A stretch of 64,000 bases of DNA from an uncultured Bacteroides sp. Its GTDB lineage: Bacteria; Bacteroidota; Bacteroidia; Bacteroidales; GCA-2748055. Under the pieces are notes generated by a model. It did no database searches. It was not told the DNA's origin and saw nothing but the letters and a program-made list of their open reading frames with translations. Location of the stretch: positions 1,586-65,585 of the forward strand of contig CAYXUD010000080.1 in NCBI GenBank assembly GCA_964467775.1, in the 5' to 3' direction. This document shows positions 2,186 to 35,620 of this stretch, piece by piece; position 1 is the first letter of the stretch; each line of letters begins with the position of its first letter. The translations under genes and the position numbers were made by a program.

Positions 2186-3091
2186 TTACAACATTGAAAC
2201 AGGCAGGGATTGCAGGATCATTCCGGGACCTTCGATTTCAACCCTCAGGATTTCACCGTAATTTCCTTCAAAGAAGTCCAGCATAAAAGGGTATTTCCCC
2301 CTTTTCAGTTCAATTTTTCCCTTCGATATAAAAGGCCCGTGAATGCCATCGTTATCGACAACCATGGTATCATTTACAAACAAACGCGAGCCATCATCGC
2401 TTATGGTTGAAAACCGGTATGGTCCGTCCCCGGGTGAGATCTTGACAGCAGCCGAACTTATGTGGCTGTTTTTGGGAAATGAAACATTTTCGGATATAAA
2501 ATGATAGCTCCCGGAAGTAATTTCACAGCGAAGCACGCCATCCTTGAATCCAAGAAGTTTTACTCCCCCGGCCCTCGTAATTTTCCGGTTTCCTTCACGA
2601 ACATCTGATCTGCCATTTGCAGGGAGATTGATTTTCGCCGTTGTATTGACGGGAATTTCAATGTCCCATGTAAAATTGTTGTCTTCATCCAGTTCCCAGC
2701 TGCTGTAAATTTTACCATACGGTGAATGATGGCTTGCTGTTGCAGATCGCAACTCTTCCGTAACAATGGGCTTCATAAGGATCTCTTTAAAACCGGGTTC
2801 ACCCGGCTTGATCCCCCCGATATTTTCGTAAATCCAGATAATGAGGTCCCCCAGCAACATGGCGTGATTACCCGAGTTCATGGCAGGATCTGCCGTGTTC
2901 CCGTTCCATAATTCCCAGATCGTTGTGGCCCCGTTTTTTGCCATGTATCCCCAGCTTGGGTATTCAGTTTTGGTTGCAAAACGCAGGGCAATATCGGGAC
3001 GTCCATATGCTGTCAATACCCTCTGCAGGTACATGATCCCAATGAGTCCGACCATGATGTGCCCGTTTCCATCAGTTTCAATTTTTTCCAC
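2186..3091 (-). CDS. alpha-L-rhamnosidase (GH78), C-terminal fragment with PA14-like tail; separated from 3078..5348 by the repeat element
   Basis: 301-aa ORF. GNGHIMVGLIGIMYL, YPSWGYMAKNGATTIWELWNGN and GGIKPGEPGFKEILMKP are GH78 motifs. The tail YRFSTISDDGSRLFVNDTMVVDNDG...FFEGNYGEILRVEIEGPG resembles PA14. The GTG at 3091 is only the first start-like codon after the insertion. Confidence 0.8.
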   Translation of the reverse strand: MEKIETDGNGHIMVGLIGIMYLQRVLTAYGRPDIALRFATKTEYPSWGYMAKNGATTIWELWNGNTADPAMNSGNHAMLLGDLIIWIYENIGGIKPGEPGFKEILMKPIVTEELRSATASHHSPYGKIYSSWELDEDNNFTWDIEIPVNTTAKINLPANGRSDVREGNRKITRAGGVKLLGFKDGVLRCEITSGSYHFISENVSFPKNSHISSAAVKISPGDGPYRFSTISDDGSRLFVNDTMVVDNDGIHGPFISKGKIELKRGKYPFMLDFFEGNYGEILRVEIEGPGMILQSLPVSML

Positions 3092-5348
3092 GATATGATT
3101 GAATCCCGCTCGCGCAATCCCCGTAGCTTTGCTGCGGGGTAAGCGAGCACAAATAAAATAATTTATGGATCGAAGATTCCTCGGAGCTTGCTCCGAGGAG
3201 CTTCAATACTGCCTCCCGGTATTTCTCAGGTACCAGGTCAAAACCAAGCGACAACAGGTTGGCGGTGGGTGTATTGTTGCTGTAATAGTTCATCGATTCG
3301 ACAAAGTATTCCTTGTTGTAAGCCACCTTCATGGAATCAGCCAGTGCCTCAAACAGTGCTTCATCTTCCTGAAAACCAAGCAGATTGGCAAAGCGCTGCA
3401 TGATCCTGGCATCATGATAATAGAAAGCAGTTCCGATCAATGCACCACTCGTAATCCTGTCCGGATCGCTGCTGTGGATCATCGACATTTCTTCAGGAGG
3501 CATACACCAGTCACCATAGGTGTCGCGAGGCATCAGGAAACCGGTCATATACCTGTTTTGCATATAGTGCATCCATTTTTTCATGGCAGGATAATGTTCA
3601 TGAACGGCATCTATTCCTCCAAACTGGTCATACAGCATCTCGGCAACCATGATCCCGGTTCCATCCCAGGTCACATTGTCATTATATAATCTCCAGTATG
3701 CAGGGCTGACATCAGGAATACTTCCCTCCCCGGTCTGGTCATCGCGCATATCAGCGAGCCACTTGCGGTAGAGGTTATAATTGTTGAACATGTAACTCTC
3801 ACCCCGGCATCCCGTGGCCCTGTCACCCAACCAGCCCATGCGCTCGTCGCGCTGCGGACAGTCGGTTGGCATACTCCGGTAGTTTCCCCTGATACCCCAG
3901 ACGGCATTTTTATAGACCTGGTTGAGGAGATCACTGGCACAGTCGAAAGTGCCGTTTGTCCGTACGTCGTTATTCACGACGCAACCCAGGATTGTGTTCA
4001 GGTCTGGTTTGCCGGGATACCCTCTGACTTCAACATACCTGAAGCCATGATATGTAAATTTTGGAACCCAGGTTTCCGGTCCATCTCCTTTCAAAGTATA
4101 CATATCGGTAACCTTTGCACTCCTGATATTGTCGAGGTAGAGTGTTCCATCCTTTCTTAAAGTTTCCGCAAAGCGCATCACCACCCTGTCTCCCTGTTTA
4201 CCTTCAACCGACAACTTTACCCAGCCCACCATGTTTTGACCCAGGTCATAGATAAAAACACCCGGGCTCACCTCATTCACCGATACCGGCTTGATATAAC
4301 CCGTCACCCTGATGGGTTCGATCAGCGGTGCTGAAAGCTTTCCCGGGGGTGCCATGACCAGCTCAGCCTTCAACCAGTTTATCGGGGTGTATCCGGGTTT
4401 ATCCCATCCGTAGAGATCCTTCCGCGCATCGTATTTCTCTCCGTCGAATTCGCTGTTTTCCCTAATGGGGCCATTGGCGGTTACACTCCAATTTTCATCG
4501 GAAATAATAACTTCATTGCTGCCATCGCTGTATTCGATATTAATCTGCATGATAAGCTTTGGGAATCCGTAATGCTCCATCTTCATAGGAATGTTATTGC
4601 GCATGGCAAAATAACGTCCATTCCCGAGCACAATTCCAATGGCGTTCTGTCCAATCTCAATCATGGAGGTGACATCAAATGAATTGTAAAAAACCCTCTT
4701 ATTGTACTGGGTGGCATCGGGTGCCAGCACCATATCGCCTGTTTTTTCGCCATTCAGGTGCAGTTCGTACAATCCAAGGCCACTGATATGGGCAGTAGCA
4801 GATTTGACCTCTTTTAAAATTTCAAATTCCCTGCGGAAATAGCGGGCCGCCAGTTTGCGGAATTCCCCTTCAATATCATCTCCGGCAAATGATCTGTCCA
4901 GCCCTATCCATCTGCCCTTCCAATCCTCTTCATTCAGCAGTCCCATTGACCAATACGCCGTTTCAGACCATCCAGATTCAACATCATTTTTACTCCATAC
5001 CTTTACCTTCCAGAAACATGCCTGGCCTGATTTCAGCGGGACACCACTATATTTTATGTTGAGGGACTGGCAGGACTCTATTATTTTTGAATCCCAAAGG
5101 GTTCCATTGTCATTTTCGAGATCTTCGGAGGTGGCTGCAACCAAAACCCGGTATGCCGTTTGTTCTTCTCCCCTCTGTTCCGAAACGGATTGCCAGCTTA
5201 ACGAAGGTTGGAGTATATCAATACCAGAAGGGTTCAATCTGTTTTCACACAACAGATTTACGGGTGAAATTCCTCCGTTTGAATGAGGGTTCTTACTGCA
5301 GCTGAGTAAGATAAGCGTGAGCAGGAAAAGGATTTGAATTGGTTTCAT
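3078..5348 (-). CDS. alpha-L-rhamnosidase (GH78), N-terminal fragment; last ~41 codons are element-encoded or out of frame
   Basis: 756-aa ORF with a lipoprotein-like signal (MKPIQILFLLTLILLSCS). QPSLSWQ...AYRVLVA is the GH78 N-terminal domain pattern. It is contiguous in sequence logic with 2186..3091. The tail LKLLGASSEESSIHKLFYLCSLTPQQSYGDCASGIQ is a translation of the repeat. Confidence 0.85.
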   Translation of the reverse strand: MKPIQILFLLTLILLSCSKNPHSNGGISPVNLLCENRLNPSGIDILQPSLSWQSVSEQRGEEQTAYRVLVAATSEDLENDNGTLWDSKIIESCQSLNIKYSGVPLKSGQACFWKVKVWSKNDVESGWSETAYWSMGLLNEEDWKGRWIGLDRSFAGDDIEGEFRKLAARYFRREFEILKEVKSATAHISGLGLYELHLNGEKTGDMVLAPDATQYNKRVFYNSFDVTSMIEIGQNAIGIVLGNGRYFAMRNNIPMKMEHYGFPKLIMQINIEYSDGSNEVIISDENWSVTANGPIRENSEFDGEKYDARKDLYGWDKPGYTPINWLKAELVMAPPGKLSAPLIEPIRVTGYIKPVSVNEVSPGVFIYDLGQNMVGWVKLSVEGKQGDRVVMRFAETLRKDGTLYLDNIRSAKVTDMYTLKGDGPETWVPKFTYHGFRYVEVRGYPGKPDLNTILGCVVNNDVRTNGTFDCASDLLNQVYKNAVWGIRGNYRSMPTDCPQRDERMGWLGDRATGCRGESYMFNNYNLYRKWLADMRDDQTGEGSIPDVSPAYWRLYNDNVTWDGTGIMVAEMLYDQFGGIDAVHEHYPAMKKWMHYMQNRYMTGFLMPRDTYGDWCMPPEEMSMIHSSDPDRITSGALIGTAFYYHDARIMQRFANLLGFQEDEALFEALADSMKVAYNKEYFVESMNYYSNNTPTANLLSLGFDLVPEKYREAVLKLLGASSEESSIHKLFYLCSLTPQQSYGDCASGIQSYRGKN
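3098..3207 (+). mobile_element. 110-bp hairpin-rich repeat element (MITE/PATE-like), copy 1, inside the GH78 gene
   Basis: Sequence: attgaatcccgctcgcgcaatccccgtagctttgctgcggggtaagcgagcacaaataaaataatttatggatcgaagattcctcggagcttgctccgaggagcttcaat. It is 109/110 identical to 32944..33053. Termini are inverted (ATTGAA...TTCAAT). Hairpins lie at 3119..3139 and 3179..3198. Confidence 0.85.
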
Positions 5349-8276: not shown

Positions 8277-8466
8277 CTCTTTTATGTAACCTAAATGTGT
8301 ATCATTTTAGCGATATTACTTGAAACTGCCCTTCCGGAATATCTGAGCAATTATAAGGAAGTAAATCCAATTAAATATAGGCAGAATATACAATTTAAAA
8401 GAATATGAAATCCACAATCGAGAAGAATCATCCAGTCCTGAGGAGGATGCAATTACGATCGAGGAT

Positions 8467-8763
8467 TTATCGTTTGATCATGCGTGATTCAATCTCTTTG
8501 ATATGATCAACCAGAAACGGGGAATCAATTCCCGATACTGCCTTAATCCATGTCTTTAGCCTGAGGTTTTGTTCATATACCTTCTGACAGCTGCGCTTTT
8601 CCTCTTCGTCTGTTATTGTATTGTTATTGTTATATATGGATTTTAAATTCTCCAGCAAACGGTCCTTCTCCCGGCACCATTCGGAGTTGCGTTCATCGCA
8701 ATTACACTTTGCTTCATCAATCCACTGGAACAATCCCTCCGGGATATAGATTCTGTGCTTCAT
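8467..8763 (-). CDS. hypothetical protein (98 aa)
   Basis: ORF track only; no recognisable motif. Lies in an AT-rich context. Confidence 0.3.
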   Translation of the reverse strand: MKHRIYIPEGLFQWIDEAKCNCDERNSEWCREKDRLLENLKSIYNNNNTITDEEEKRSCQKVYEQNLRLKTWIKAVSGIDSPFLVDHIKEIESRMIKR

Positions 8764-9111
8764 ATAATTACTTGATTTTAAAATCTTATACTGATTTCCA
8801 ACATGTTTGGTACTGAGAAAAAGTACCTTTTTTCGTTGTGATGATCGCGGAATATAGCCTCCTCCAGTTTTTCGAATTCAATGAATTTCTTGTACACCAC
8901 ATGACTGTGGTCATCTGAACCATTTTTGTCTTTCAGAGAATCAATCCCAGCTCTTTGCAATTCAAAGATAGGCAATAAAACCAACAGTTGGGGATGCAAT
9001 CAGGGTAAAAATGGCCAGTATCCCAGACATGCAATAGATAGCAACAGGAATGAAATAGAGATGGACGAAAATATTCTCATTATTTTTGTTGCATAATACC
9101 TACAGAGCTCA

Positions 9112-9707
9112 ATGAAAAAAGAAAAAATTTATCCTGATTCAGAAGTCGAGCTAAATCCATCATCCAGGCCATCAAGGATATGCATATCCAGCCAAATGAC
9201 CATATTCTCGATCTGGGATGAGGGACCGGGCACAATACCAATTTAATGGCTTCCTATTTAAACGAAATGGGAACTATCCTTGGTTTGGATATTTCTGAGG
9301 AGATGGCTCTTCAGTTCCAAGCCCGGTTTTCTGAGGATAGTCGCATCAGATTTCAACCTCAGCGTGTTGATCTTCCATTTCAATTAGATAAGAAATTTGA
9401 TTAGGTATTTATAGGGTTTGTGATCCACGGATTTCCACATAATGTTCGTCATTCTGTGATTGAGAACGCATATAACCATCTTGAAGCAGGCGGAGCATTC
9501 TATATACTCGATTATGTTGAATTTGATTTGAATTCTATACCATTCCACCATCGCGCAATCTTCAAAGCAATCGAATGTAAATATGCTTTCGATTATATCG
9601 GGCATGAATGAGAATCCATTTTAAAGGAAAAAGGATTAAATGAATTCACCGAGCATTTTTATCTAAAAAACTACGTGAGGTTGCTGAAAGCAGTAAAACA
9701 GAACTGA
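9112..9707 (+). pseudogene. class I SAM-dependent methyltransferase, decayed (three in-frame stops plus an N-terminal frameshift)
   Basis: One frame reads ...IIQAIKDMHIQPNDHILDLG*GTGHNTNLMASYLNEMGTILGLDISEEMA...DKKFD*VFIGFVIHGFPHN...LEAGGAFYILDY...YIGHE*ESILKEKGLNEF...KQN*. In-frame stops are TGA 9219, TAG 9402 and TGA 9609. The LDLGxGTG motif I is interrupted. The only upstream ATG (9112) is in another frame. Confidence 0.75.
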
Positions 9708-9720
9708 TGGAACACTACCC

Positions 9721-10575
9721 TTATTTTACTGTTCCTCGTTTGACTACAAAATCGCCGGTCTGTGTGCCTGTTTTTTCTGCTATCAGATCACACTTGGTGA
9801 CAAACAGAAAATAGACATGATCATGGGGCACATCGATCAATCCCTCCAGGTTACCCTGACCTTTGGAAATAACTACATCTGCATTTATAAAATGATCTTT
9901 AAAATCCTTGGAAGAAGACTCCCACACGGCCCCAGGGGAGTCATCCCCTGTGGTAATCACGGTAGCTATATTATCTATGCCTGTCATCTGTGCATCATCA
10001 AGCGTAACATCATTTATCACAGGACTTTCCCGGACCACAAAATACTTCTGAGGTACATTAATTGACTCTAAGAATAGCTTGTCCAGAACAATCTCCCCGC
10101 AGTTGTCACCAATATAGAGCAGGGTGTCTGCATGTTTCAGGTCATGACGCAGTTCCGGGGAATGATCAATAGCCAGTTCATGGTTCATCACCTGGTTGAT
10201 CTTGGACTTTATATCAAACTGGTATTTCGCTCCAAAATCGATCACATTTCCTGCAATGGCAAGACGGATGGCTGTATCAAATGAATCGTCTGAACTGTCC
10301 ACCATTTCCTTAAAAGAAGGGTACAATTCCAGCATCATGTGGTTATATTTCTGCTTAAGTTGATGATAGGGATCAGGGTTTTGCAAAGAGGCACGAATCA
10401 TTCTCTGTAACGTTCGCCCCAGCATGGGCGGGGATTGATCGTAATTACTCCGGGACAAATATTTTAACAATTGACGTAAAATAATTTCCTGCCGAGGCTG
10501 GGGTATGACATCTGTTTCAATCAGTCTCAGATAGTTGTTAATAATGCAGGGTATACACTCAAATTGAGTCTTCAT
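9721..10575 (-). CDS. DUF89 / ARMT1-like damage-control phosphatase family protein
   Basis: 284 aa. N-terminal CIPC, IGDNCGEIVLDKLF and ISKGQGNLEG match the conserved DUF89 (PF01937) motifs. Confidence 0.75.
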   Translation of the reverse strand: MKTQFECIPCIINNYLRLIETDVIPQPRQEIILRQLLKYLSRSNYDQSPPMLGRTLQRMIRASLQNPDPYHQLKQKYNHMMLELYPSFKEMVDSSDDSFDTAIRLAIAGNVIDFGAKYQFDIKSKINQVMNHELAIDHSPELRHDLKHADTLLYIGDNCGEIVLDKLFLESINVPQKYFVVRESPVINDVTLDDAQMTGIDNIATVITTGDDSPGAVWESSSKDFKDHFINADVVISKGQGNLEGLIDVPHDHVYFLFVTKCDLIAEKTGTQTGDFVVKRGTVK

Positions 10576-10585
10576 GTATGCGTTA

Positions 10586-11800
10586 CTATTTTTTACAGTT
10601 CAGTTTGTAAATAAAAAAAAGCGAGAGCAGAATAATAGACACAAACAAAATAAAAAATAACAGATATCCAGACCGCTCAATGATCCATCCTCCCAGTAAT
10701 GGGAATAGGGCCGGGATAATATTCCCTGTTCCTGCAATCCCGGTATACAAGGTCCTGTTCTCTGTACCCGATATCTCCAGTAATACCCCATTCATGGAAA
10801 TACTATACATTGAAAAGATTACGCCTCCTGCTAAAAAAATAAGCGTGAATGGGGGCACACCAGGTGATAACAAGAGGATCAGGGGGACTGATACAACTAA
10901 AAATACATTACCGTAAAGCAAATAACGATATTTGAACTTTTTATTGATCAGAAAAAGGATAAAACCTATGACAACACTTCCTATTACTTTATAAAGGAGA
11001 AACAAACCGGTGTCATGACTTTGGGTATGATGCACCTCCTTGGCATACAGCATAATAAAAGGTAAAAGGGTAATGCTGATTCCCATGGTATTGATGAATC
11101 CAAGAAAATATACCAACTTGTTATTATGGGCTAATTCAGCTTTGATTAAAGAGAGGAAATGACGGGGATTTTTTACAATCATTCTTGAAGACTTGTGTTC
11201 TTTCAGTTTCCAGAATCCGATTGATGCGATCAGAAGAGCCAGAAAGCCGATCATAAACATGGTTGCATAGTTAACAGGATAGTCATTAAGTGTAATCACT
11301 TTTTTGGCAAGCAAAGCAGAAAAGAAGAGTACTACCCCCCCAACAACCTGTTTAATTGAAAAAAATGATTTTCTCAAAGATTGATCCACTGATTTACCAA
11401 TAATATCGGTATAGCTAACATTGGCAAAAGCACCACCAAGTGAAAAGAATGTGATAAGCAAAAATATCAACCAGATCGTGTGGCTGCCTGTGACTGAGAA
11501 ATAGAGCATGATACTCATGAACAGCAGTGAAATGATCCTGGCATTAATGCCCATCAGCAGGAATTTCTTCTTATAAGGTCGATTGCTAATAAATGGAGCA
11601 AATATTAATTGAGTAAAACTGGAACCACCCAGCATGATGGCAGTCATCAAACCAATGTGAAATCCATTCCCGCCAGCCTCCACAATCATGGCGGGGATAA
11701 CCGTATCAACATCCATAAAATTTTGGGCCAGTGCCAGAAAAGAAGCATGCCAGAGGAAGGAATGATAATTATGTCTGGATATACTTGGAGTGAGCTTCAA
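10586..11800 (-). CDS. MFS transporter
   Basis: 404 aa, about 12 hydrophobic segments, two-halves architecture with a central basic loop (KEHKSSRMIVKNPRH). Confidence 0.75.
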   Translation of the reverse strand: MKLTPSISRHNYHSFLWHASFLALAQNFMDVDTVIPAMIVEAGGNGFHIGLMTAIMLGGSSFTQLIFAPFISNRPYKKKFLLMGINARIISLLFMSIMLYFSVTGSHTIWLIFLLITFFSLGGAFANVSYTDIIGKSVDQSLRKSFFSIKQVVGGVVLFFSALLAKKVITLNDYPVNYATMFMIGFLALLIASIGFWKLKEHKSSRMIVKNPRHFLSLIKAELAHNNKLVYFLGFINTMGISITLLPFIMLYAKEVHHTQSHDTGLFLLYKVIGSVVIGFILFLINKKFKYRYLLYGNVFLVVSVPLILLLSPGVPPFTLIFLAGGVIFSMYSISMNGVLLEISGTENRTLYTGIAGTGNIIPALFPLLGGWIIERSGYLLFFILFVSIILLSLFFIYKLNCKK

Positions 11801-11809
11801 AGTACAGTA

Positions 11810-12116
11810 TTAATCATATAGTAATCTGGTTTTTTCGTTGGCCAGGATTGGATTAATTAAACCTGAAAGGTCCAGAGATTCCCACGTTCCAAGTTTGGTA
11901 TGTATGGCATAGTATTTTTGCGGGATTGGATGGGATCGAACGATTGCTTTCATACCATATTTTTCCCGAATCAGATCCTGAAAATGCCTGATATTCATCT
12001 GTTGTGCAGATATCAAACGTGGCCTCCCTATTATGAAGGGCTCGGAAACATTTACCTCCACCACAGTAGCGATAACGGTCACAAATAATGATTCCGATCT
12101 TAGTTATTGTCGTCAT
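11810..12116 (-). pseudogene. CGGC-domain-like small protein, probably degenerate (two overlapping frames)
   Basis: Frame 1 (11853..12116) starts MTTITKIGIIICDRYRYCGGGKCFRALHNRE, which resembles the CGGC-domain N-terminus. Frame 2 (11810..12082) ends ...DLIREKYGMKAIVRSHP, which resembles the domain C-terminus. The central CGGC motif is missing. Confidence 0.3.
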
Positions 12117-12126
12117 GTCTTGAAAC

Positions 12127-12504
12127 TTAATTACTCTGCTTTACTTCAAACATATTACCGCTATGATCCGAGATAAATATCAGATCGGAATTGTGTCTTT
12201 TTAAGCGAATACACTTATATGAATGTTGAGTTGCTCTCTTAACAATTTCTTCCCTATGGGAGGTCGAAATGCATATATGATTAAAGCCATGATGATGTTG
12301 TTCCGGCGTCAAAAATATTTCCAGTAACAGTTTATCTTTTTGCAACAGAAAGATTTTCGTTTCTTCCTCAATACCAAAAATATTCCTGGCAAGATCCTTA
12401 TCAAGAATAAAACTTCTTATCTCAATCATTCCTAAAATTTCATGATAGAACTGTTTGATCTCATTATAGTCCGTAATAGTCAACGCAATATGTTCTAATT
12501 TCAT
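12127..12504 (-). CDS. VOC (glyoxalase/bleomycin-resistance/dioxygenase) family protein
   Basis: MKLEHIALTITDYNEIKQFYHEILGM...HHGFNHICI...DHSGNMFEV shows the typical VOC beta-alpha-beta-beta-beta pattern. Start chosen at ATG 12504, directly after the upstream stop (12506-12508). Confidence 0.65.
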   Translation of the reverse strand: MKLEHIALTITDYNEIKQFYHEILGMIEIRSFILDKDLARNIFGIEEETKIFLLQKDKLLLEIFLTPEQHHHGFNHICISTSHREEIVKRATQHSYKCIRLKRHNSDLIFISDHSGNMFEVKQSN

Positions 12505-12505
12505 T

Positions 12506-14365
12506 TTATAATTCTTTTGCAAGTTCGTATGCCCCATGAATTGCATCCTGGGCGTTACCGGGATGCCTGGCATCACCGATCACATAAACTGGCAATTTGC
12601 CCGTGAGCTCTTTTTCAAGGGGATTATAACTTTTCATGCCAGCTGAAACAACAACAACATCTATGTTTTCAAATTGGATTTTTTCTCCATCTTTTTCCGC
12701 GAAAACCGTTTTGTCTTCAATTCTCTTTATAGAAGTATGATCACTAAAAATTGTCCCCTTTTCCTCCATTATTTTTAAGGATAAATTCTTTGCAATCATT
12801 TCCATATCCTCTCCAAAATCCGTGGTTCTTTTGACTATAATAACCTGGTTATCCAATGGAATTAATGCTGTGGCTATATCAACCCCAATAAGGCCGCCCC
12901 CAATGATCAATACTCTTTTGTTTCTTGGAAGATTCTTTTCCAAAAGTATTTCTGCACCATAGAATTTATCCATTCCCGGAATTTTAAGTACTGCCGGTTT
13001 AGAACCTGTTGCTAATATCAGACCATCATATTTAGATATAATATCTGATATTGTAGCCTCTTTGAAAATTACGCTTATATCATTATTTATTAGCTCCTCA
13101 ATAAAATATGGCACCAACAGTGCCATTGATTTTTTATGTGGAGTTAAAGGTGCTAAATTGAATTGCCCGCCTAATTTATCTTTTTCATAAAGGTCAACTG
13201 TATGTCCGCGTTTCCTCAGGATAATGGCAGCCTCCATACCTGCCAATCCACCACCAACAACTGCAAATTTTTTAGGATGCCTTGTTTTTCTTATAATATC
13301 TGACTCCTTACCAACTTCAGGATTTACAAGGCATTGAAGTCCATGACCCGATTTAACTCCGCCCAGACAACCTTCTGCACAGGCCAGACAGGGTGCTATA
13401 TTGCGTCCTACCGTTCCAAGATATTTCCCTGTGAAATCCGGGTCGGCAATTAAAGATCGTCCAATAGCAAGATATTCTGCTTTGTGTTCATTAAACAGCG
13501 CATCTATGTCATCTTTTGTATTGATCCTTCCAACGTAAATCACCGGTATATCAATTTCTCTGCGGATGGTATCTGCAAAATCCCATGTTTTTCCTTTCGA
13601 AACAAACATGTGCTGAAAGAACCATGGGGGTGTTGTACAAACAGATCCGGCGGAGACGTGAATGGCTGCTGCTCCATTCTTCTCCATAATTCGTGCAAAA
13701 TGAATCATTTCATCGATATGAAAACCTTTAGGGGTCATTTCATCTCCGCTGATTCGTATAATTACCGGGATATCAACAGCACTTATTACGGCCTGGACCA
13801 CCTCCAGTGGAAATCGGTATCTGTTTTCAAAGTCTCCTCCATATTCATCCGTACGATTGTTGACCTGAGGTGATAAAAATTGAGCTAACAAATAACCATG
13901 TCCAAGTTGAAGTTCGATCAAATCAAAACCTGAAATAACAACCCTCCTGGCTGCATCTTTGAAAAGTTGAATGACCCTGTTCATCATTCTCCTGTCCATT
14001 TTTTCAGGCACAGCTCCTCCATTTTCGCAAGCCCGGGTAGTTGATGACCAGAAGTAATTTTCGGGTATCATCGGATTGGCCATTCTCCCCGGATGGTTTA
14101 AATGGGCAATGGCTTTGGCTCCATGCCGATGAATGATGTCTGTAAGCTTACGAATACCTTCAATTTTATCATCATTATCAATACCCAGTTGGGTTGGTAA
14201 CTCCCTCAAACCCTCATCTATATAAAAAGGTTCGGGGATCATGGCTCCGATATTCTGGTTTCTCCGGTTGTAAAATTGCAGATGCCTGTCAGTTACCACT
14301 CCCGTCCCATCACTGTAGCCAAGCTTGACTGGAGCTAAAATGAATCTATTTTTTAATTCTATCAT
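12506..14365 (-). CDS. NADH:flavin oxidoreductase (Old Yellow Enzyme domain) fused to an FAD/NAD(P)-binding domain (2,4-dienoyl-CoA reductase-like)
   Basis: 619 aa. The OYE TIM-barrel part carries HLNHPGR, ELQLGHGYLLAQFLSP and a Cys cluster (CLACAEGC). This is followed by a Rossmann GxGxxG (VVGGGLAGMEAA) and a second IIGGGLIGVD. Confidence 0.8.
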   Translation of the reverse strand: MIELKNRFILAPVKLGYSDGTGVVTDRHLQFYNRRNQNIGAMIPEPFYIDEGLRELPTQLGIDNDDKIEGIRKLTDIIHRHGAKAIAHLNHPGRMANPMIPENYFWSSTTRACENGGAVPEKMDRRMMNRVIQLFKDAARRVVISGFDLIELQLGHGYLLAQFLSPQVNNRTDEYGGDFENRYRFPLEVVQAVISAVDIPVIIRISGDEMTPKGFHIDEMIHFARIMEKNGAAAIHVSAGSVCTTPPWFFQHMFVSKGKTWDFADTIRREIDIPVIYVGRINTKDDIDALFNEHKAEYLAIGRSLIADPDFTGKYLGTVGRNIAPCLACAEGCLGGVKSGHGLQCLVNPEVGKESDIIRKTRHPKKFAVVGGGLAGMEAAIILRKRGHTVDLYEKDKLGGQFNLAPLTPHKKSMALLVPYFIEELINNDISVIFKEATISDIISKYDGLILATGSKPAVLKIPGMDKFYGAEILLEKNLPRNKRVLIIGGGLIGVDIATALIPLDNQVIIVKRTTDFGEDMEMIAKNLSLKIMEEKGTIFSDHTSIKRIEDKTVFAEKDGEKIQFENIDVVVVSAGMKSYNPLEKELTGKLPVYVIGDARHPGNAQDAIHGAYELAKEL

Positions 14366-14484
14366 CCTGCAATTGTTTTTTATAATCTCATTACATATCC
14401 TGCTAATCCGACTATAAAAGCAACAATGCTTTCTAAGGAAGCCAATGTACTCGCAGTATTTAAATGAAAATCAAGCAATAAGAA

Positions 14485-14712
14485 CTATGTCTTATCCTTG
14501 ACCATCTCTTCCCTGATCATGGTATGTCCACATTCGGGACATTTTAGGGTAGTGCATTTTACCCCTCTCCTGTGTGGAATTTTTTCGCCACACTTTGTGC
14601 AAATACAAAACCCACCTGTTCCATAAGAACCACCTTTATTCCGGCCTTGCCCTGTACCAGGGCCGGATCCTTTATCCTGGCCCATATGCATACCTTTTCC
14701 AGATTTGTTCAT
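14485..14712 (-). CDS. small Gly-rich zinc-ribbon protein
   Basis: 75 aa with a Gly-rich N-terminus and two CxxC pairs (CTKCG...CPECG). Confidence 0.5.
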   Translation of the reverse strand: MNKSGKGMHMGQDKGSGPGTGQGRNKGGSYGTGGFCICTKCGEKIPHRRGVKCTTLKCPECGHTMIREEMVKDKT

Positions 14713-14783
14713 AATATCTGAATTTTATTACTTACCCAAAAGAAACAGGCTATTGTTAGCGCAACCTATATCTTTTGTTTCAA

Positions 14784-15089
14784 TTACTTCTTTTCGGTGT
14801 TTGAGAGCCGATCTTCAAGTGCGGACAACTTGTCTTTGAGAATCCTGATCTCGTTTTCAATTAAAGTCTTTTCAGATACATCAGTGACATTTCCATGGTA
14901 ATAATTTCCATAGCCATACCTGACCCCCCCACCATAACCAGGGCCACCATGAAATCGCCTTCTATATCCTCTTCCCCAATTCGATTGCGAGGTCATATAA
15001 CCAGGTTGATCATTGCCCGTACAATATCCCATCCCTCTTCCTGTTTTAGGTCCTTCACCCGATGGACCTGTTCTGTCACCTCTTGGCAT
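14784..15089 (-). CDS. DUF5320 domain protein
   Basis: 101 aa. MPRGDRTGPSGEGPKTGRGMGYCTG with a Gly/Tyr-rich middle and a C-terminal coiled coil (ENEIRILKDKLSALEDRL) is the characteristic DUF5320 layout. Confidence 0.7.
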   Translation of the reverse strand: MPRGDRTGPSGEGPKTGRGMGYCTGNDQPGYMTSQSNWGRGYRRRFHGGPGYGGGVRYGYGNYYHGNVTDVSEKTLIENEIRILKDKLSALEDRLSNTEKK

Positions 15090-15113
15090 AATTACCTCCT
15101 TTTTTATGATGTG

Positions 15114-15545
15114 TTAAATGCAGCATTTTCCATGGCCAAAATTTCCAGCCAAATTCATGATATTTTTTGAATGACATTCGGGACATTCTCTGATATTTTC
15201 TTTAAAATTTATTTTAAACATATGCCCACAATTTTTGCATTGGATGATATTAACTCTGAAATGCACAGTACCCCCTTCAATTGTAAGCAGCCTTCCCTGG
15301 ATAATGAAATCAGCAATTTTTTTCCTTGCCTTTTCAATCAACCGGGAAAAGGTAGATCGGGAAATTTCCATTTCATCAGCCGCTAAAGCATGTGAAAAGC
15401 CCAATTGATCAGCCAGTCGAAAGGCTTCAAATTCATCAAGTGTCAAAATAATCGGTTTCAGATTATGTCCTCTTACCCCGATTGGTTTAAAATCGGAAAA
15501 CAGAGGTGGCTCATATACGATTCTATTATACTGTGGTCTTGGCAT
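15114..15545 (-). CDS. DUF134 (UPF0251) putative DNA-binding protein with C-terminal zinc ribbon
   Basis: MPRPQYNRIV...KPIG...LTLDEFEAFRLADQLGFSHALAADEMEISRSTFSRLIEKARKKIA is the DUF134 HTH core. The C-terminus has CKNCG...CPECH. Start set at ATG 15545. Confidence 0.75.
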   Translation of the reverse strand: MPRPQYNRIVYEPPLFSDFKPIGVRGHNLKPIILTLDEFEAFRLADQLGFSHALAADEMEISRSTFSRLIEKARKKIADFIIQGRLLTIEGGTVHFRVNIIQCKNCGHMFKINFKENIRECPECHSKNIMNLAGNFGHGKCCI

Positions 15546-15664
15546 AATGTATATATTATTACAAATATAATGCACATATGTGCATTATACAAATTATTTT
15601 CCTTAGTTTTGAACAACAGTTTTCATATGATAACAATATATGTAACCCTATAAAATATGACAGT

Positions 15665-16003
15665 ATGTGGATAGAAGTTCTAAAATCAAAAATACACCGG
15701 GCAAAGGTAACCGGCGCTGATTTGAATTATTCAGGAAGTATAACTATAGATGAAGCCTGGATGCAAAAAGCTGATTTAGTCGAATTTGAAAAAGTGCAAG
15801 TATTGAATATTAATAATGGTGAACGGTTTGAAACATATGTTATAAAAGGTCGAATGAACAGCAAGGAAATCATATTAAACGGTGCTGCCGCCAGGAAAGT
15901 TCAGGTAGGAGACCTTGTCATTATTTTATCGTATACATGGATTGATAAAAAAGAGTATGATCGGTATAATCCTGTGATTTTTATTGCAGACGTGTCATCA
16001 TGA
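15665..16003 (+). CDS. panD: aspartate 1-decarboxylase
   Basis: [33 protein letters not shown]...[11 protein letters not shown]...[19 protein letters not shown] is a near-consensus PanD, including the G-S self-cleavage site. Start at ATG 15665. Confidence 0.9.
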
Positions 16004-29524: not shown

Positions 29525-29794
29525 CTATTCTATAATCTTCAAGATTTCACCGGGAATAACTTTTCCATTCGGGATGGTTAAATGACCCTCGCAGCTGTTA
29601 TTTTGAAGGTTCAGATCATTGCTGTCCGTTATTTCTATTTCAGCAGTTATCCTGAAGCTTCCATGGGACGCCTTCCAGTTTTTCCCGTGTATGCCCTGGG
29701 CACAGGCCAGTTCCATGCCCCCGACCGGGATTGCTAAAGATCTTGAATTACGCGAGCGCAGTCCCCGAAGTTCTACTTCGGGGTAAGCGAGCAC
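29525..29794 (-). CDS. C-terminal remainder of the GH3 protein (second half of a CARDB-like beta-sandwich); first ~17 codons are element-encoded
   Basis: MLAYPEVELRGLRSRN is a translation of the repeat. SRSLAIPVGGMELACAQGIHGKNWKASHGSFRITAEIEITDSNDLNLQNNS continues the domain begun by ...IIRFYVDGKEVAWYH at the end of 29950..32250. Confidence 0.65.
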   Translation of the reverse strand: MLAYPEVELRGLRSRNSRSLAIPVGGMELACAQGIHGKNWKASHGSFRITAEIEITDSNDLNLQNNSCEGHLTIPNGKVIPGEILKIIE

Positions 29795-29851
29795 AAATAA
29801 AATAAGAAATTAATCGATGATTCCTCGCAGCTTGCTGCGAGGAGAGTCAAT
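29742..29851 (+). mobile_element. repeat element, diverged unit V (first unit of a tandem dimer)
   Basis: Sequence: cttgaattacgcgagcgcagtccccgaagttctacttcggggtaagcgagcacaaataaaataagaaattaatcgatgattcctcgcagcttgctgcgaggagagtcaat. It has the same length as the canonical unit and aligns to it without gaps. Both hairpins are retained through paired substitutions. Confidence 0.8.
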
Positions 29852-29954
29852 CCCGCTCGCGCATTCCCCGTAGCTTTGCTGCGGGGTAAGCGAGCACAAA
29901 TAAAATAATTTATGGATCGAAGATTCCTCGGAGCTTGCTCCGAGGAGCTTCAAT
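29852..29954 (+). mobile_element. repeat element, canonical unit C (second unit of the dimer; shares the junction 7-mer with unit V)
   Basis: 103 nt identical to 32951..33053. It follows GTCAAT of unit V directly, without its own left ATTGAAT. Confidence 0.85.
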
Positions 29955-32250
29955 GATACCATGCCACTTCTTTCCCATCCACATAAAAACGGATAATATG
30001 CGAATCGCCCATATTCGAAGTTGCTGTTCCGTTGTTGATAAGTGAAGCCATCAATATGACTTCTTCTCCATCCTTGGGAAAAGCAGGAATGGAACGAATA
30101 TTTTTCACTGAAAGGTCCGCTTTGCCTTCTGCCCCAGTCATGTTAAATCCAGCTTTCAGGGTCAGGTTGTCCGAAGACCCACCCACCCGCACAATGAATT
30201 CACCGGCCGGAACTTGGTAAGATCTCTTTACTTCATTGTATATGTACAACTCTTCGGGAGAAAGGGTGAATACAATCTTTTTAGTTTCACCCGGATGTAG
30301 AAAGACTTTCTCAAAACCACGTAATTGTTTTTCGGGCATCTGAAGATCAGGGGTAATTTTCCCGGTTGACAGATATAACTGCGCCACCTCTTCGCCGGCA
30401 ACTTTTCCTGTATTTTCGAGGTCGAATGAAACTTCAATGATTTCTCCCACCCTGGCGTCTGCCCTGTTCACCTCAATATTCGAATATTGAAAAGTGGTGT
30501 AACTCAATCCAAATCCAAAAGCAAATTCAGGTTCCAGATCTTGCGAATCGAACCAGCGATATCCTACGCCTCTGCTTACCATGTGACGAAAATCAGAACT
30601 AATGGGGATTATCTGCCCGTCATTTTTAGGAATCGTAGCCGGCAGTTTTCCCGAAGGGTTGTAATTGCCGAACAGAACATCGGCAATGGCACGCCCGCTT
30701 TCCTGTCCCGGATAGAACGCATAGAATAGTGCCTTCACATTGGTTATGACCTGGGTTACACTGCAGGGTCCTCCCGAAATCACTACCAGAATTATATTTG
30801 GATTTACCTTTGCTATTTCATTGATCAACTCATTCTGAATCCCGGGAAGAAGAACTGTCCCTGATTGCCTGTCAGGGCGGGTAACCAATCCACCTCCTTT
30901 CTGATCAGCCTCTTTGTCAAAGAAGTATCCCTCTCCTTCCACAGTACTGTCAAGCCCGGCCACAAAGATTACATATTCTGAATTTGCCGCAGCTTCCAGT
31001 GCTGCCCTGAATTGTGATTTATCCTGGTCATTGATGTTGCAACCTTTTGCATAGGATACATGCGTTTTGCCAAGTATGGATGTAACAGCCGTTTCAACGG
31101 ATATGCGATATGAGGGTAGTACCTGTGAACTGCTGCTCCCATCCAGTGGCAAATGTGCGGCATTGGGACCAATCACCGCTATCTGCGTCAGCTTTTCCTT
31201 ATCAAGAGGTAAAATGTTTCCATTGTTCTTCAGTAGCACAAGACTTATCAAACCACTCTCGTACACCAGTTTACGGTGTGCCTCGCAGTCGATCACACTT
31301 GTGGGAACCTCCGGTACACCATCTATCATCCCGGATATGATCTTTGTCCGAAGCACATTCCTTGTTGCTCTTTCAACCAGTGCGCTGTCGAACCTGCCCT
31401 CCCTCACTCCGACTGGCAGTTCATTGATATACAAATCGTTGCCTTCGCAGAAATCCAGTTCAGCACTCAGGGCTTTTCCTGTTTCACTGAAACCGCCCCA
31501 GTCGCACATGGTGTAATAGTCAAAACCCCATAGGTCGCGCAGCAGCTCTTTTATCAGGTACTTGTTTTCGGCACATTTATCGCCATTCACCCGGTTGTAG
31601 GCACACATGATTGAAAATGCTCCTCCAATCTGTATGGTTCTTTTCCAATGATATCCCCAGAATTCAACCAGGCTACGCTCATCGCTCAGGTAATTGTTGG
31701 TCCTTCTGTTCATTTCATAGGTGTTCAGATTATAGTGTTTCACAGAACCAAACACAGAAGTAGTATTTTGCCCGAGCACAAAGGCTTCAGAGATCCTGCC
31801 ACCCAAAAAAGGATCTTCCCCGATGGTCTCGGGAGCGCGGCCAGTACGCGGATCAATAAGTAGATCGAGTGTGGGTCCGGCAATACGGTCTCTGCCCCGT
31901 GAAGCCTGCTCCATGGAAATGGCCCTGCCCACCCGTGTGATCAGGGCAGGATCCCAGGTGGCCGCCATGGCGATGGTTACAGGAAAGCATGAGAATCCGT
32001 AGGCTCCGTTTCCTATACCGTGCGGGCCATCGCTCCCGGTAAATTGAGGAATTCCCAAACGTGGGGTTCCATCGGTGAGGTAATACAACTGTTCAATCTT
32101 CTCCTGCATGGTCATCCCGGACAGAAGGGTATCGAGCCTTTTTTCCAGTGCACTTTCAGTTTCAGTAGGCATCGAAGAACATTGAATTACCAGAAAACCC
32201 GACAATCCAATCAACGGGAAGAACAAAATGTGGGACACTATTTTTTTCAT
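29950..32250 (-). CDS. GH3 beta-glucosidase-type glycoside hydrolase, truncated in its C-terminal CARDB-like domain by the repeat dimer
   Basis: Signal MKKIVSHILFFPLIGLSGF (ATG 32250, overlapping the upstream stop as TAATG). GSDGPHGI, KHYNLN, MCDWGG and a Fn3-like domain are GH3 features. The ORF stops at a TGA formed inside the element terminus (..tat cat TGA agc). Confidence 0.85.
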   Translation of the reverse strand: MKKIVSHILFFPLIGLSGFLVIQCSSMPTETESALEKRLDTLLSGMTMQEKIEQLYYLTDGTPRLGIPQFTGSDGPHGIGNGAYGFSCFPVTIAMAATWDPALITRVGRAISMEQASRGRDRIAGPTLDLLIDPRTGRAPETIGEDPFLGGRISEAFVLGQNTTSVFGSVKHYNLNTYEMNRRTNNYLSDERSLVEFWGYHWKRTIQIGGAFSIMCAYNRVNGDKCAENKYLIKELLRDLWGFDYYTMCDWGGFSETGKALSAELDFCEGNDLYINELPVGVREGRFDSALVERATRNVLRTKIISGMIDGVPEVPTSVIDCEAHRKLVYESGLISLVLLKNNGNILPLDKEKLTQIAVIGPNAAHLPLDGSSSSQVLPSYRISVETAVTSILGKTHVSYAKGCNINDQDKSQFRAALEAAANSEYVIFVAGLDSTVEGEGYFFDKEADQKGGGLVTRPDRQSGTVLLPGIQNELINEIAKVNPNIILVVISGGPCSVTQVITNVKALFYAFYPGQESGRAIADVLFGNYNPSGKLPATIPKNDGQIIPISSDFRHMVSRGVGYRWFDSQDLEPEFAFGFGLSYTTFQYSNIEVNRADARVGEIIEVSFDLENTGKVAGEEVAQLYLSTGKITPDLQMPEKQLRGFEKVFLHPGETKKIVFTLSPEELYIYNEVKRSYQVPAGEFIVRVGGSSDNLTLKAGFNMTGAEGKADLSVKNIRSIPAFPKDGEEVILMASLINNGTATSNMGDSHIIRFYVDGKEVAWYH

Positions 32251-32996
32251 TACAGGCAGGTTACTCCGTATAGCATATAGCCGGTATCGTTCATGGCCGA
32301 TATCAAATCGATGGATCTGATTTCTACATCGGGCCTGGGATTTTCCCATGTATAACGGTATAATTTCAACACAAAACCCAGGTCTTTTACCCTGGGATTT
32401 GAACCCTCCCATGCCAGTTCAGCTCTGGGTGGAAATACTGAATTCTTCGGATGGAACCACCAATCTTCAACCTCGATCCGGCTTCTGATGGTGATGGTTT
32501 TTTTCCGGTTATCTGCATAATTGACCACAATGCGGACAACTTCTGTCCCTGTTTCACTCTCCCAGGCTGATGAATGCAAGAAGCATAATTCATCAGCCAT
32601 GTGATGAACAGGTATGCCGGAAATTTCCTTCGGATAATTGATGTGGGACATTTCGAGGGAAACCTTGCTGGCCAGCTGGATAATGCCACGGGCATCGAAA
32701 TTCACACCGTTAAAATCATTGATTCCAGAAGGAATGGGTATGGTATTGCCTGGTTTGCCATGAATCTCTTCACTCAAAGAAAAATTATAATAAGGCTCCA
32801 GATCAACATATCTGCCATCGTCAGGGAATTGCCGCGGGACAATGGCGCGCAATGGTTTTGTTCTTATTTGCATCATTTCTTTTTTTGATTGGACCGGAGG
32901 CAACTCCTTATCGAAATCGTCGCTGGTATAGGTTATTTTAGTAATTGAATCCCGCTCGCGCATTCCCCGTAGCTTTGCTGCGGGGTAAGCGAGCAC
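32250..32996 (-). CDS. C-terminal accessory domain of the interrupted GH-A hydrolase (unassigned beta-rich domain); first 17 codons are element-encoded
   Basis: MLAYPAAKLRGMRERD is element-derived. The host part is SITKITYTSDDFDKELPP...VNFDARGIIQLAS...LCFLHSSAW...VNYADNRKKTITIRSRIEVEDWWF...WENPRPDVEIRSIDLIS. The frame joins 33049..33957 if 103 nt are removed. Confidence 0.6.
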   Translation of the reverse strand: MLAYPAAKLRGMRERDSITKITYTSDDFDKELPPVQSKKEMMQIRTKPLRAIVPRQFPDDGRYVDLEPYYNFSLSEEIHGKPGNTIPIPSGINDFNGVNFDARGIIQLASKVSLEMSHINYPKEISGIPVHHMADELCFLHSSAWESETGTEVVRIVVNYADNRKKTITIRSRIEVEDWWFHPKNSVFPPRAELAWEGSNPRVKDLGFVLKLYRYTWENPRPDVEIRSIDLISAMNDTGYMLYGVTCL

Positions 32997-33053
32997 AAAT
33001 AAAATAATTTATGGATCGAAGATTCCTCGGAGCTTGCTCCGAGGAGCTTCAAT
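32944..33053 (+). mobile_element. 110-bp repeat element, copy in the GH-A gene
   Basis: 109/110 identical to 3098..3207. Hairpins at 32965..32985 and 33025..33044. Termini ATTGAA...TTCAAT. Confidence 0.85.
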
Positions 33054-33957
33054 CTCCCGTGAAAATAAGTACCTGTGTGGTACGTGGCCCAATGATGTCG
33101 TGGTATACCTCATCGCGCTGCCCCTGAACCACAAAAATTAATCCAGGTCCGCTTTCGCCCGCATCATCCAGATATAAAGTATATTCCCCGGGATCGCCAA
33201 AGCCCCTGTTCATCATCATGACGCTGAGTCGGTCGCCATCCTGTGCGCCATAAACCAGGAAATCATCATTGGAAACTGTCCCCTTCAGGAAGGTGCCTGT
33301 AAAATATTTTGCCACAAACTCCATGTGCCGGTATGATGCCCTGGGGGTCATGTGGGCTCCGTCGATCAGGCTGAAATCGGATTCTTTGCGGTCGCCTCCA
33401 TGTTCAAACATGCTCCAGCAGGCGGCATAGGCAGCTTCGTACTCCATGCACCAGCCCAGTACCGCCCCGAACATTTGTCCGTTCCCCCACGTGTGCACCT
33501 TGGGGCCTCCCTTGGAGTTGTACTCTCCAATTCCCCAGATCAGCGCATCAGCGCCGGTACGATTGTGCAATGCATTCACCTGGTCTGTTTTAGCTTTTGA
33601 TTTCACGATGCGTTCCAGGAAATCGTTGGCTCCTTCAATGGCCGGGTCGCCGTCACCCTGGGGATAACGGTGCCAAGACAGACCGTCGCAATAATAATAA
33701 TCTTTGTCCGGGACTTTGATCGCGATATCGTTTTTCCCTCCAAACAGGTCATCGAAAGGCACATCGAAATAATCGCAGAAATCGGGACCATAAATCTTTA
33801 TGGTGGGATCCACCGCCTTCATGGCGGCAGCAATGGGTTTGAAATAGCCTTCGACAAACTCCCCCATGGTTGAAAGGGGCGGACGGTTGGCCTGCAACCA
33901 GGGTTCGTTACCAATGTTCCAGTATTTAACCGGCGATACACCCTCATGTTTCTCCAC
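33049..33957 (-). CDS. clan GH-A (TIM-barrel) glycoside hydrolase, central fragment (family not assigned)
   Basis: VKYWNIGNEPW (NEP acid/base motif). Paralogous along its length to 34298..35620. It stops at the TGA in the element terminus (gga gat TGA). The apparent GTG start follows a frameshift. Confidence 0.75.
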   Translation of the reverse strand: MEKHEGVSPVKYWNIGNEPWLQANRPPLSTMGEFVEGYFKPIAAAMKAVDPTIKIYGPDFCDYFDVPFDDLFGGKNDIAIKVPDKDYYYCDGLSWHRYPQGDGDPAIEGANDFLERIVKSKAKTDQVNALHNRTGADALIWGIGEYNSKGGPKVHTWGNGQMFGAVLGWCMEYEAAYAACWSMFEHGGDRKESDFSLIDGAHMTPRASYRHMEFVAKYFTGTFLKGTVSNDDFLVYGAQDGDRLSVMMMNRGFGDPGEYTLYLDDAGESGPGLIFVVQGQRDEVYHDIIGPRTTQVLIFTGD

Positions 33958-34301
33958 GTTAAAAACCGGACCAGTTCGGCGACAGCTTCAGCAGGTTGGT
34001 ATTGGGAAACCTGCAGAATGGGTACAGCTCCTACAGCCTGGATTTTTTGAACCCAATCCAACAGTGTTTCCTTCGATGGCAGGTTCTTGTCATACGCATG
34101 GCCTCCAATCCGGATGGTTTTCATTCCGCACTCCATGGTAAGGTTCCATGCCTGCTCGCCCGGATCATTGTACCATACATTGGTGCCAACCAGCAGTGGG
34201 CTGATCTGTTGCGCAATGGAATCAGTGGCAAGGAAAATAAATATCCCGGCTATGAGTTTAGAAGCACAGGTTTTCATGATGGATTGTATTGAAGATTTCA
34301 T
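33819..34301 (-). CDS. N-terminal fragment of the same GH-A hydrolase (signal peptide plus first ~113 codons real, remainder out of frame)
   Basis: MKSSIQSIMKTCASKLIAGIFIFLATDSIAQQISPLLVGTNVW...IRIGGHAYD...ILQVSQYQPAEAVAELV parallels QEISPWLFGQNHW...VRIGGNGYE...ILQVPRKFSAEEVTGLV of the paralog. Frame is lost at the A5/T5 run 33961..33965. The start overlaps the upstream stop (ATGA). Confidence 0.7.
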   Translation of the reverse strand: MKSSIQSIMKTCASKLIAGIFIFLATDSIAQQISPLLVGTNVWYNDPGEQAWNLTMECGMKTIRIGGHAYDKNLPSKETLLDWVQKIQAVGAVPILQVSQYQPAEAVAELVRFLTWRNMRVYRRLNTGTLVTNPGCRPTVRPFQPWGSLSKAISNPLLPP

Positions 34302-35620
34302 TGTATATCAGGTGGCAGGTTCTTCAGATTGTGGATTAATCCATACGTGTATTGCTTCAGAATTTCTCCTGTTTCCGATAATACAAACATCAGGGTGGTC
34401 TGCCCGGGAATGGTACCACTGATCATCTTATCAAGGCCGGCATCGGCATGGATGATCAAGGGTTTGGGGGACATGCCATCTTTGTTCAGTATAAGATCGA
34501 ATTCAAAATCTTTTTCCCTGTCCCGGTTTAATATCATCACGACAATTTCATCATCGCTTGCCGTGGCGATGGACCTGACATAGGAGTTGCTGGTTGCAGA
34601 AGGCAGGAAGTTGCCTTTCATATGTGAAGCCATCATCTGCGTGTGGTAAAAGCTGGATCGCGGATAGAATTCGGAGGGCAGGCCAAGAAATCCAAAATCG
34701 GTACGAACTCTGTCTGTTTCACTGAGGCACCATGGATTCACTGTAAAGGCTCCGTATTCAAGACCAATGCCATACATCTCAGCGATGAATTGTCCGCCGA
34801 GAAACGAAGGATTTCCAATACCCGAGATCTCCCTGTCGGGATTGATGTAGGTCACATTCACTTCGGTAAGTCCCCAGAGCAATTCTGCATCTCCCGTACG
34901 ACCATGTTTCCTGTTTGCCTCCTCCATCATTTCTGTCAGTTGTATGACCTGTCTACGGATGCTGAAAGGGCCCGAGAAAACCACATCATCGCGATCGAAA
35001 TCCCTGCCATTGGGATAGTTATGAAAGGTGAATCCATCAATGATCCAGTTCCCCTTTTCATCCTTGCCCGTGATATCTAGTCTTCCTCCGCACAGCGCCT
35101 CATATGCCTCTTTATATAACGTACAGGCGTCAAACACAAATATTTTGATCGTCGGATCAGCTGCTTTCATGGCAGGGGCAAGTCTGATCAGGTAGGTGTA
35201 CACTTCATCTATTTTTCCCTTGTTGTTGCAGATGGGTTCATTGCCGATGGACCAGAACTGAACAGGTTCCCTTTCAGGGTTATGGTTTAATAAATTCACC
35301 AAGCCGGTCACCTCTTCTGCTGAAAACTTGCGGGGTACCTGCAAAATCGGCTCTGCACCAATTCCGCGGATGGAGTCAATCATTCCAATCAGTGTGTGAT
35401 TGTCAGGAAAGCGATGTTCATACCCGTTTCCCCCGATGCGCACCATCCTGATGCCGCTCTGCCCTACTTTTGGCCAGAGCATGGATAGATATCCAGGGCG
35501 TTCACCCTCATCCCGGGTGTCCATCCAGTGGTTCTGCCCGAAAAGCCACGGACTGATTTCCTGCCCATTCACTCCTGAAGCGAATGCCGCAAGCACTAAA
35601 ATTAATCTTAGGAATTTCAT
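34298..35620 (-). CDS. clan GH-A (TIM-barrel) glycoside hydrolase, intact paralog
   Basis: 440 aa with a signal peptide. FWSIGNEP acid/base motif and GLTEVN candidate nucleophile strand. Confidence 0.7.
   Translation of the reverse strand: MKFLRLILVLAAFASGVNGQEISPWLFGQNHWMDTRDEGERPGYLSMLWPKVGQSGIRMVRIGGNGYEHRFPDNHTLIGMIDSIRGIGAEPILQVPRKFSAEEVTGLVNLLNHNPEREPVQFWSIGNEPICNNKGKIDEVYTYLIRLAPAMKAADPTIKIFVFDACTLYKEAYEALCGGRLDITGKDEKGNWIIDGFTFHNYPNGRDFDRDDVVFSGPFSIRRQVIQLTEMMEEANRKHGRTGDAELLWGLTEVNVTYINPDREISGIGNPSFLGGQFIAEMYGIGLEYGAFTVNPWCLSETDRVRTDFGFLGLPSEFYPRSSFYHTQMMASHMKGNFLPSATSNSYVRSIATASDDEIVVMILNRDREKDFEFDLILNKDGMSPKPLIIHADAGLDKMISGTIPGQTTLMFVLSETGEILKQYTYGLIHNLKNLPPDIQ

Follow-up and report, generated by a model that had tools for sequence, protein, structure and literature searches.

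A gene-less 103-nt hairpin element, probably of the IS200/IS605 type, inserted in three glycoside-hydrolase genes of an uncultured Bacteroides sp.

The window analysed here, a 64-kb stretch of DNA from an uncultured Bacteroides sp., contains four copies of a 103-nt element, all on the + strand. Judging from its anatomy and its insertion sites, this element is probably a non-autonomous, gene-less transposon of the IS200/IS605 type ('PATE'-like), which a Y1 (HUH) transposase would mobilise in trans from its folded single-stranded DNA. The family is apparently an undescribed member of the IS200/IS605-type elements and not a new kind of element, and it reveals no new mechanism. The copies lie at 3105..3207 (c1), 29749..29851 (unit V), 29852..29954 (unit C) and 32951..33053 (c4). 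Copy c1 is one base apart from unit C, c4 has the sequence of unit C, and unit V belongs to a 'TACGCGAGCGC / GAGAGTCAAT' subfamily. Immediately 5' of each insertion is the motif TTGAAT, which is host gene sequence before V (29743..29748), host sequence with a single occurrence in the empty site before c1 (3099..3104), and is present likewise before c4 (32945..32950). Unit C begins directly 3' of the GTCAAT with which unit V ends, so that in the dimer this 3' end fills the place of TTGAAT. A sequence-only reading of the same DNA had described V and C as a tandem dimer and noted the identity of C with 32951-33053, which we confirm. The repeat is real, but the fourth copy at 3105-3207 had been missed, and the unit is 103 nt and not the 110 bp proposed, the extra 7 nt, (A)TTGAAT, being host target sequence. 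The context of the element had also been overlooked, namely that each window copy splits a coding gene, that the junctions have the form TTGAAT|...TTCAAT|, and that there is an exact empty site.

All three interrupted genes are on the - strand. Copy c1 lies within a GH78 alpha-L-rhamnosidase gene (2186..5348), which it splits into 5348..3208 and 3104..2186. The 206-nt dimer splits a GH3 beta-glucosidase gene (29525..32250) into 32250..29955 and 29748..29525, and c4 splits a glycoside-hydrolase-like gene (32250..33957), a paralogue of 34298-35620, into 33957..33054 and 32950..32250. Removal of 103 nt (c1, c4) or 206 nt (V and C together) with TTGAAT retained restores one long reading frame at 3/3 sites, and the rebuilt proteins are a GH78 rhamnosidase of 1019 aa, a GH3 beta-glucosidase of 839 aa and a hydrolase-like protein of 534 aa. 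With TTGAAT kept, the GH3 protein (P0121) reads ...AWYHSRSLAIPVGG... and aligns gap-free to its homologues, more than 100 of which, with lengths of 829-855 aa, match it; its junction, ...AWYH|SRSLAIPVGG..., is gap-free against homologues of the same length, and it carries the Pfam domains Glyco_hydro_3, Glyco_hydro_3_C and Fn3-like. Solved GH78 structures align gap-free over the c1 junction only when the 103 nt are removed and TTGAAT is kept in the gene. The third host gene had no Pfam match, and its paralogue at 34298-35620 aligns straight through the c4 junction once the 103 nt are removed. For c1 the empty site itself was found, in an intact GH78 orthologue (P0001, 92% protein and 94% DNA identity) on a JGI contig (L028), where the sequence ...ATATGATTGAAT|ACTGCCTCC... 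equals the window flanks minus 3105-3207, with no bases duplicated or lost. In an annotation, these three glycoside-hydrolase genes would appear split or truncated; in fact, one element has recently inserted in all of them.

The 103-nt copies shift the frame, and the upstream frames stop inside or just past the element, so that truncated proteins result. A model in which the insert is translated in frame was rejected on this account, as 103 nt is not a multiple of 3, and an intron or bypass model was rejected on the evidence of junction, length and frame. The Rickettsia palindromic elements (RPE) are similar in being hairpin-rich repeats of about 100 nt inside protein-coding genes, but they insert in frame and are translated. 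The window insertions are not peculiar to one assembly: a 3178-nt metagenome contig (L152) of a 99%-identical strain from a second, independent sample starts in the c4 copy (1-80) and ends in the C copy (3100-3178), and the insertions are therefore real. The element breaks short-read assemblies, and the genome of this second strain probably holds many copies. The near-identity of c1, C and c4 indicates recent activity, and the window, with near-identical copies and 3/3 sites in genes, looks like the outcome of a recent burst.

Two of the host genes have other lesions. The interrupted GH78 gene is without about 393 nt (131 codons) that are present in the 94%-identical orthologue (window 2419-2435 versus 3535-3910 of L028); the loss is in frame, with a 17-nt overlap at the join, and has cost the protein a portion of its C-terminal accessory domains (1019 versus 1153 aa). 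In the third host gene, alignment to the paralogue places a frameshift near 33957-33971, between the ORF 34301..33819 and the ORF 33957..33054, which is either the mark of a pseudogene or a sequencing error. Elsewhere in the window, positions 8001-16000 have a G+C content of 0.39, compared with 0.49 for the whole window, and may be acquired DNA.

Each unit contains two hairpins on the + strand, at 29763-29783 (A) and 29823-29842 (B) in unit V and at 29866-29886 (A) and 29926-29945 (B) in unit C. The left-end hairpin has the form CCCCG-NNNN-loop-NNNN-CGGGG, with its foot 14-17 nt from the left junction; the right-end hairpin, CCYCG...CGRGG, is similar, and 9 nt separate its foot from the right end. 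The two hairpins lie in direct orientation on one strand and mark distinct left and right ends of the element. The trinucleotide ATT precedes both hairpins in the window copies, and the left-hairpin ATT is nearly invariant in our alignment of the family (A1, below), where several of these bases were fixed by the search patterns. There are no terminal inverted repeats: the 5' neighbour TTGAAT belongs to the host, and TTCAAT is the element's own 3' end. A MITE model with terminal inverted repeats was rejected, as the ATTGAA/TTCAAT symmetry depends on host bases and is lost at many sites, and there is no target duplication. Classical MITEs (Correia/CREE, Tc1/IS630-derived) resemble the element in being about 100 nt long, gene-less, multi-copy and gene-disrupting, but the element has neither true terminal inverted repeats nor a duplication of TA or any other sequence.

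V and C differ at 20/103 positions. In the stems there are six changes, which form exactly three compensated pairs and break none of the stems. We checked these hairpins and pairs again in the sequence and found them as the sequence-only reading had described them; by our own estimate, the chance that six such changes would land as three pairs is about 4e-4, a figure that does not yet require the paired bases to be complementary. That reading had concluded that the secondary structure is under selection and that this is not a decaying duplication, and had proposed folding both strands and testing covariation across all copies. The covariation bears the conclusion out. Folded as DNA, each strand does far better than shuffled sequence (z about -5). 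Double changes are well above controls in alignment A1, which comprises 101 distinct copies among the matches listed and in which pairs were counted against shuffled and slid-partner controls. Hairpin A is paired at 97.2% and hairpin B at 95.0% in this alignment, and in hairpin B both sides change in 7/10 pairs. The number of doubly changed cells is 208, against 50.6 +/- 13.5 in shuffled controls (0/500 reach 208) and 11-38 with slid partners. A GAAG/CTTC outer pairing beside the right cleavage site is kept in 91-94% of A1 and shows some covariation. An outer helix GCTCGC/GCGAGC around hairpin A, seen in unit C, was considered and rejected, as its two central pairs fail in about 90% of members.

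Covariation alone cannot separate RNA from single-stranded DNA. At position 6 of hairpin A the commonest pair is T.G (44/101 in A1), and in hairpin A G.T pairs outnumber A.C pairs by 37 to 9. Since T.G outnumbers A.C, the fold of the + strand is favoured, and most likely there is one active strand and the folded molecule is + strand single-stranded DNA. As proxies for the direction of replication in the window, two measures disagree: the corrected GC skew gives weak preference to the + strand as lagging-strand template, and the gene-strand bias points the opposite way.

The family is large. Species-representative genomes and metagenomes were each scanned once for it with sequence patterns; the patterns fixed part of the sequence, so that GGGTAAGCGAGC, ATTCCCCG and GATTCCTCG owe some of their conservation to the search itself. 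The scan of genome bins gave 26 true loci, in bins of Bacteroidales, Prolixibacteraceae and Draconibacterium, and the metagenome scan gave at least 120 loci; more than 130 copies are known outside the window. The contigs that carry them range from 34% to 68% G+C among the matches listed. One of these (L044, 64% G+C) carries a typical element together with a hemL gene that is 82-87% identical to Nitrospirota proteins, and the family therefore spans at least two phyla, with many Bacteroidota bins and at least one Nitrospirota contig. In the copies of the Nitrospirota type the right hairpin is almost the same in sequence as the left.

Among the matches listed there are 131 distinct insertion sites, at which the left flank is (T)TGAAT, the element ends in GAGCTTCAAT, and the outer flanks beyond these junction motifs are random. 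As the G versus C difference between left flank and right end is consistent, the target motif is not duplicated. The boundaries were placed with the help of G-A-A and TCAA, a choice that has no bearing on the T at -5, the G/C contrast or the empty site. Copy lengths are 98-144 nt among the matches listed. The longer variants of 129-144 nt (L004, L011, L013, L014, L016, L022; L044, L111, L133) have a third hairpin, which is placed in the central spacer in some and separates hairpin A from the left junction in others. Most copies are intergenic: among the matches listed, 123/131 sites are outside long reading frames and about 8/131 inside, as expected if a selfish insertion is purged from genes by selection. 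Adjacent copies on the same contig have the same orientation in 8/9 pairs.

The V and C dimer is better understood against this background. The closest relative of V among the matches listed is a copy in another genome bin (L009), with which it shares 92% identity, while V is 81% identical to C; the closest relative of C outside the window among the matches listed is 86% identical. Judging from these identities, the dimer is the product of two independent insertions of different subfamilies, head to tail, and because V and C come from different subfamilies it is not a duplication. The local tandem duplication implied by the description of a tandem dimer therefore does not hold. A second head-to-tail tandem (L011) starts right after ...TCAAT, so that in two unrelated genomes tandems begin exactly 3' of (T/G)TCAAT. 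The head-to-tail contact of the two units and their 103-nt period might be read as a decaying local tandem duplication or an assembly artefact, but this is refuted by the covariation, by the presence of the same insertions in the independent sample (L152) and by the greater similarity of V to the copy of another genome than to C, and more than 130 copies exist elsewhere.

These features are those of IS200/IS605 elements such as IS608 and ISDra2 and of the PATEs ('palindrome-associated transposable elements'). As expected of this type, insertion occurs without target-site duplication and the empty site is an exact join of the flanks; similar subterminal hairpins are found at both ends of one strand, without terminal inverted repeats; and a fixed motif of 5-6 nt lies just outside the left end (TTGAAT|), a related one forming the last bases of the right end (TTCAAT|). 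Head-to-tail insertion after the element's own 3' motif and co-orientation of copies on the same contig are likewise shared. The target of IS608, TTAC, is outside the element, 19 nt 5' of the left hairpin, and TCAA is inside it, 10 nt 3' of the right hairpin; insertion is 3' of the target, DNA is neither gained nor lost, and a single strand is active (PMC3201880). The distances between hairpin and junction are of the same order in the two systems, 14-17 and 9 nt here and 19 and 10 nt in IS608. Gene-less PATE-like relatives are moved in trans, and the two motifs have been named 'transposon-adjacent' and 'transposon-encoded' (PMC10055086). Unlike IS608 and ISDra2, the present element has the target TTGAAT, not TTAC or TTGAT. 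Its 103 nt place it towards the lower limit of size for the type and probably leave too little room for a guide (omega) RNA.

We propose that a dimer of a Y1 (HUH) TnpA encoded elsewhere in the genome would bind both hairpins on single-stranded DNA of the + strand, cut after TTGAAT and after TTCAAT, and release a single-strand circle with the junction TTCAAT|CCCGCTCG. The donor would be resealed without a scar and the circle pasted 3' of another TTGAAT or TTCAAT; insertion after the TTCAAT-like end of a resident element would give head-to-tail dimers such as V and C. If the transposase reads the shape of the hairpins, stems would co-vary while spacers drift. The Y1 model would thus account for the compensatory stem changes, the lack of duplication, the dimers and the tendency of copies on one contig to point the same way. 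The AAT found at both junctions is complementary to the ATT that precedes each hairpin. The putative guide, 5' of the hairpin foot, and the target were not seen to change together in A1, where single copies have altered bases 5' of hairpin A and an unchanged target.

Unlike IS200/IS605 elements that carry their own genes, no copy at the loci examined had a tnpA, tnpB or iscB partner with these ends, and about 0.9 Mb of sequence surrounding roughly 150 loci contained no Y1 gene bounded by them. A scan of all loci for Y1 motifs detected only an unrelated IS200 (L064). This is a complete IS200-like element at 8550-9200 on the minus strand, with a Y1 tnpA containing YHLIWCPKYR, DHVHLVV and YVRWQ; two copies of the hairpin element are about 550 nt away from it, and its own end hairpins, CCATCAGC.. 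and CCACCGCC.., are unrelated. As candidates for a parent element, 42 apparent 'solo' left ends were also considered and rejected, being complete elements with diverged right hairpins or truncated copies beside host genes.

With no IS-type partner beside any copy at the loci examined, the element could instead be REP-like and served by a domesticated, single-copy Y1 enzyme (RAYT / TnpA-REP, for example of the Bacteroidetes-rich subclass 2.6 or of 1.2) and not by an IS-borne TnpA, the chemistry being the same and the partner and biology different. We consider this unlikely. Like the REP/BIME/REPIN sequences associated with RAYTs, the family consists of short GC-rich hairpins in many copies that are mostly intergenic and presumably handled by a Y1 HUH enzyme. 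Genes of the Bacteroidetes subclass 2.6 are flanked by 'atypical' hairpins without GTAG, more copies of which occur elsewhere in the genome, and the listed examples include hairpins with ATTC or GTTC feet and CGCGAGCG/CGCTCG stems (PMC6006769). The resemblance to these examples is short, however, and may be due to chance. The GT[AG]G foot is absent here, the feet being (GC)ATT-CCCCG and GATT-CCYCG, and the hairpins are direct and form no inverted doublets. The element has defined, distinct left and right ends and inserts exactly, with an empty site, in a filled/empty geometry that matches IS608 and is not known to have been demonstrated for REPs. No Y1 gene of any class flanked by these hairpins was found in the neighbourhoods of the roughly 150 loci. 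The broader proposal, that the family is mobilised by a single-strand (HUH/Y1) enzyme, unrecognised or domesticated, that is common to Bacteroidota and Nitrospirota, for example of the 'atypical REP' RAYT class of Bacteroidetes, we regard as quite unlikely. If it were true, this would be the first REP-like hairpin element with direct filled/empty site proof of transposition, and the insertions in polysaccharide-degrading genes could be reversible on/off switches and not dead ends, which is conceivable because excision by this chemistry is scarless.

The absence of inverted repeats and of duplication, the insertion beside a short fixed motif and the lack of a partner enzyme at the loci examined would also suit another single-strand HUH system, such as IS91/ISCR or a Helitron-like rolling-circle element, or a novel enzyme. 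In IS91/ISCR and Helitron-like systems the hairpin is mainly a feature of one end, and the end motifs are different. In the present element, similar hairpins are found at both ends and the cleavage motifs are placed as in IS608, and this alternative is highly improbable.

Likewise highly improbable is the view that the structure is kept for a role at the RNA level and not for transposition, whether as a small RNA, as a terminator or stabiliser of mRNA, or as an insert that is bypassed or behaves like an intron and so spares the host genes. The strong folding of both strands is compatible with it, as is the orientation of the copies in genes, the element being antisense to the gene in four of the clearest cases. 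On the other hand, the whole window gave no match to Rfam at gathering thresholds and no ribozyme match, a permissive Rfam search of the dimer gave nothing meaningful, and neither hairpin is followed by a run of T. Copy length (98-144 nt) does not run in multiples of 3, the best-conserved positions are exactly those of the junction motifs, the empty site shows that an insertion took place, and two of the interrupted genes have the further lesions described above. The best sub-threshold Rfam match, Chloroflexus-1 RNA at 29774-29949 on the minus strand (25 bits, gathering threshold 181.5), most likely reflects repeated-hairpin content only. A blastn search of the unit against plasmid and phage collections gave no match; in viral contigs the right-end pattern had three chance hits and the left-end pattern none; and literature searches for the core sequence (full-text sequence search) and for the TTGAAT target returned nothing relevant. 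The sequence-only reading had seen no resemblance to any named repeat family. In the Rfam, plasmid, phage and full-text searches this holds, but the element is not unclassifiable, its anatomy being that of a non-autonomous transposon of the IS200/IS605 type.

A covariance model of the family would let annotation pipelines spot such interruptions in Bacteroidota and Nitrospirota bins, and would also explain contig breaks such as those of L152. With more than 130 natural variants of a transposon-end hairpin, a clean TTGAAT target and a verified empty site, the family should be useful for studying how Y1 transposases read DNA shape and in the search for the partner enzyme.

Variation among subfamilies was also seen at the ends. 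One subfamily (L038, L065, L070, L073, L147) has TGAAA as its left flank and finishes on the right in TTTTAAT or TTTTAAC, with no change in the bases that immediately precede hairpin A on its 5' side; this could represent a shifted target preference. The hairpin A variant CCCCGAAGTTCTACTTCGGGG is paired in A1 with two left-end leaders, CCCGCTCGCGC and TACGCGAGCGC, and with differing right ends (L007, L020 and L040 versus L009 and window V), which suggests that modules may have been exchanged between subfamilies.
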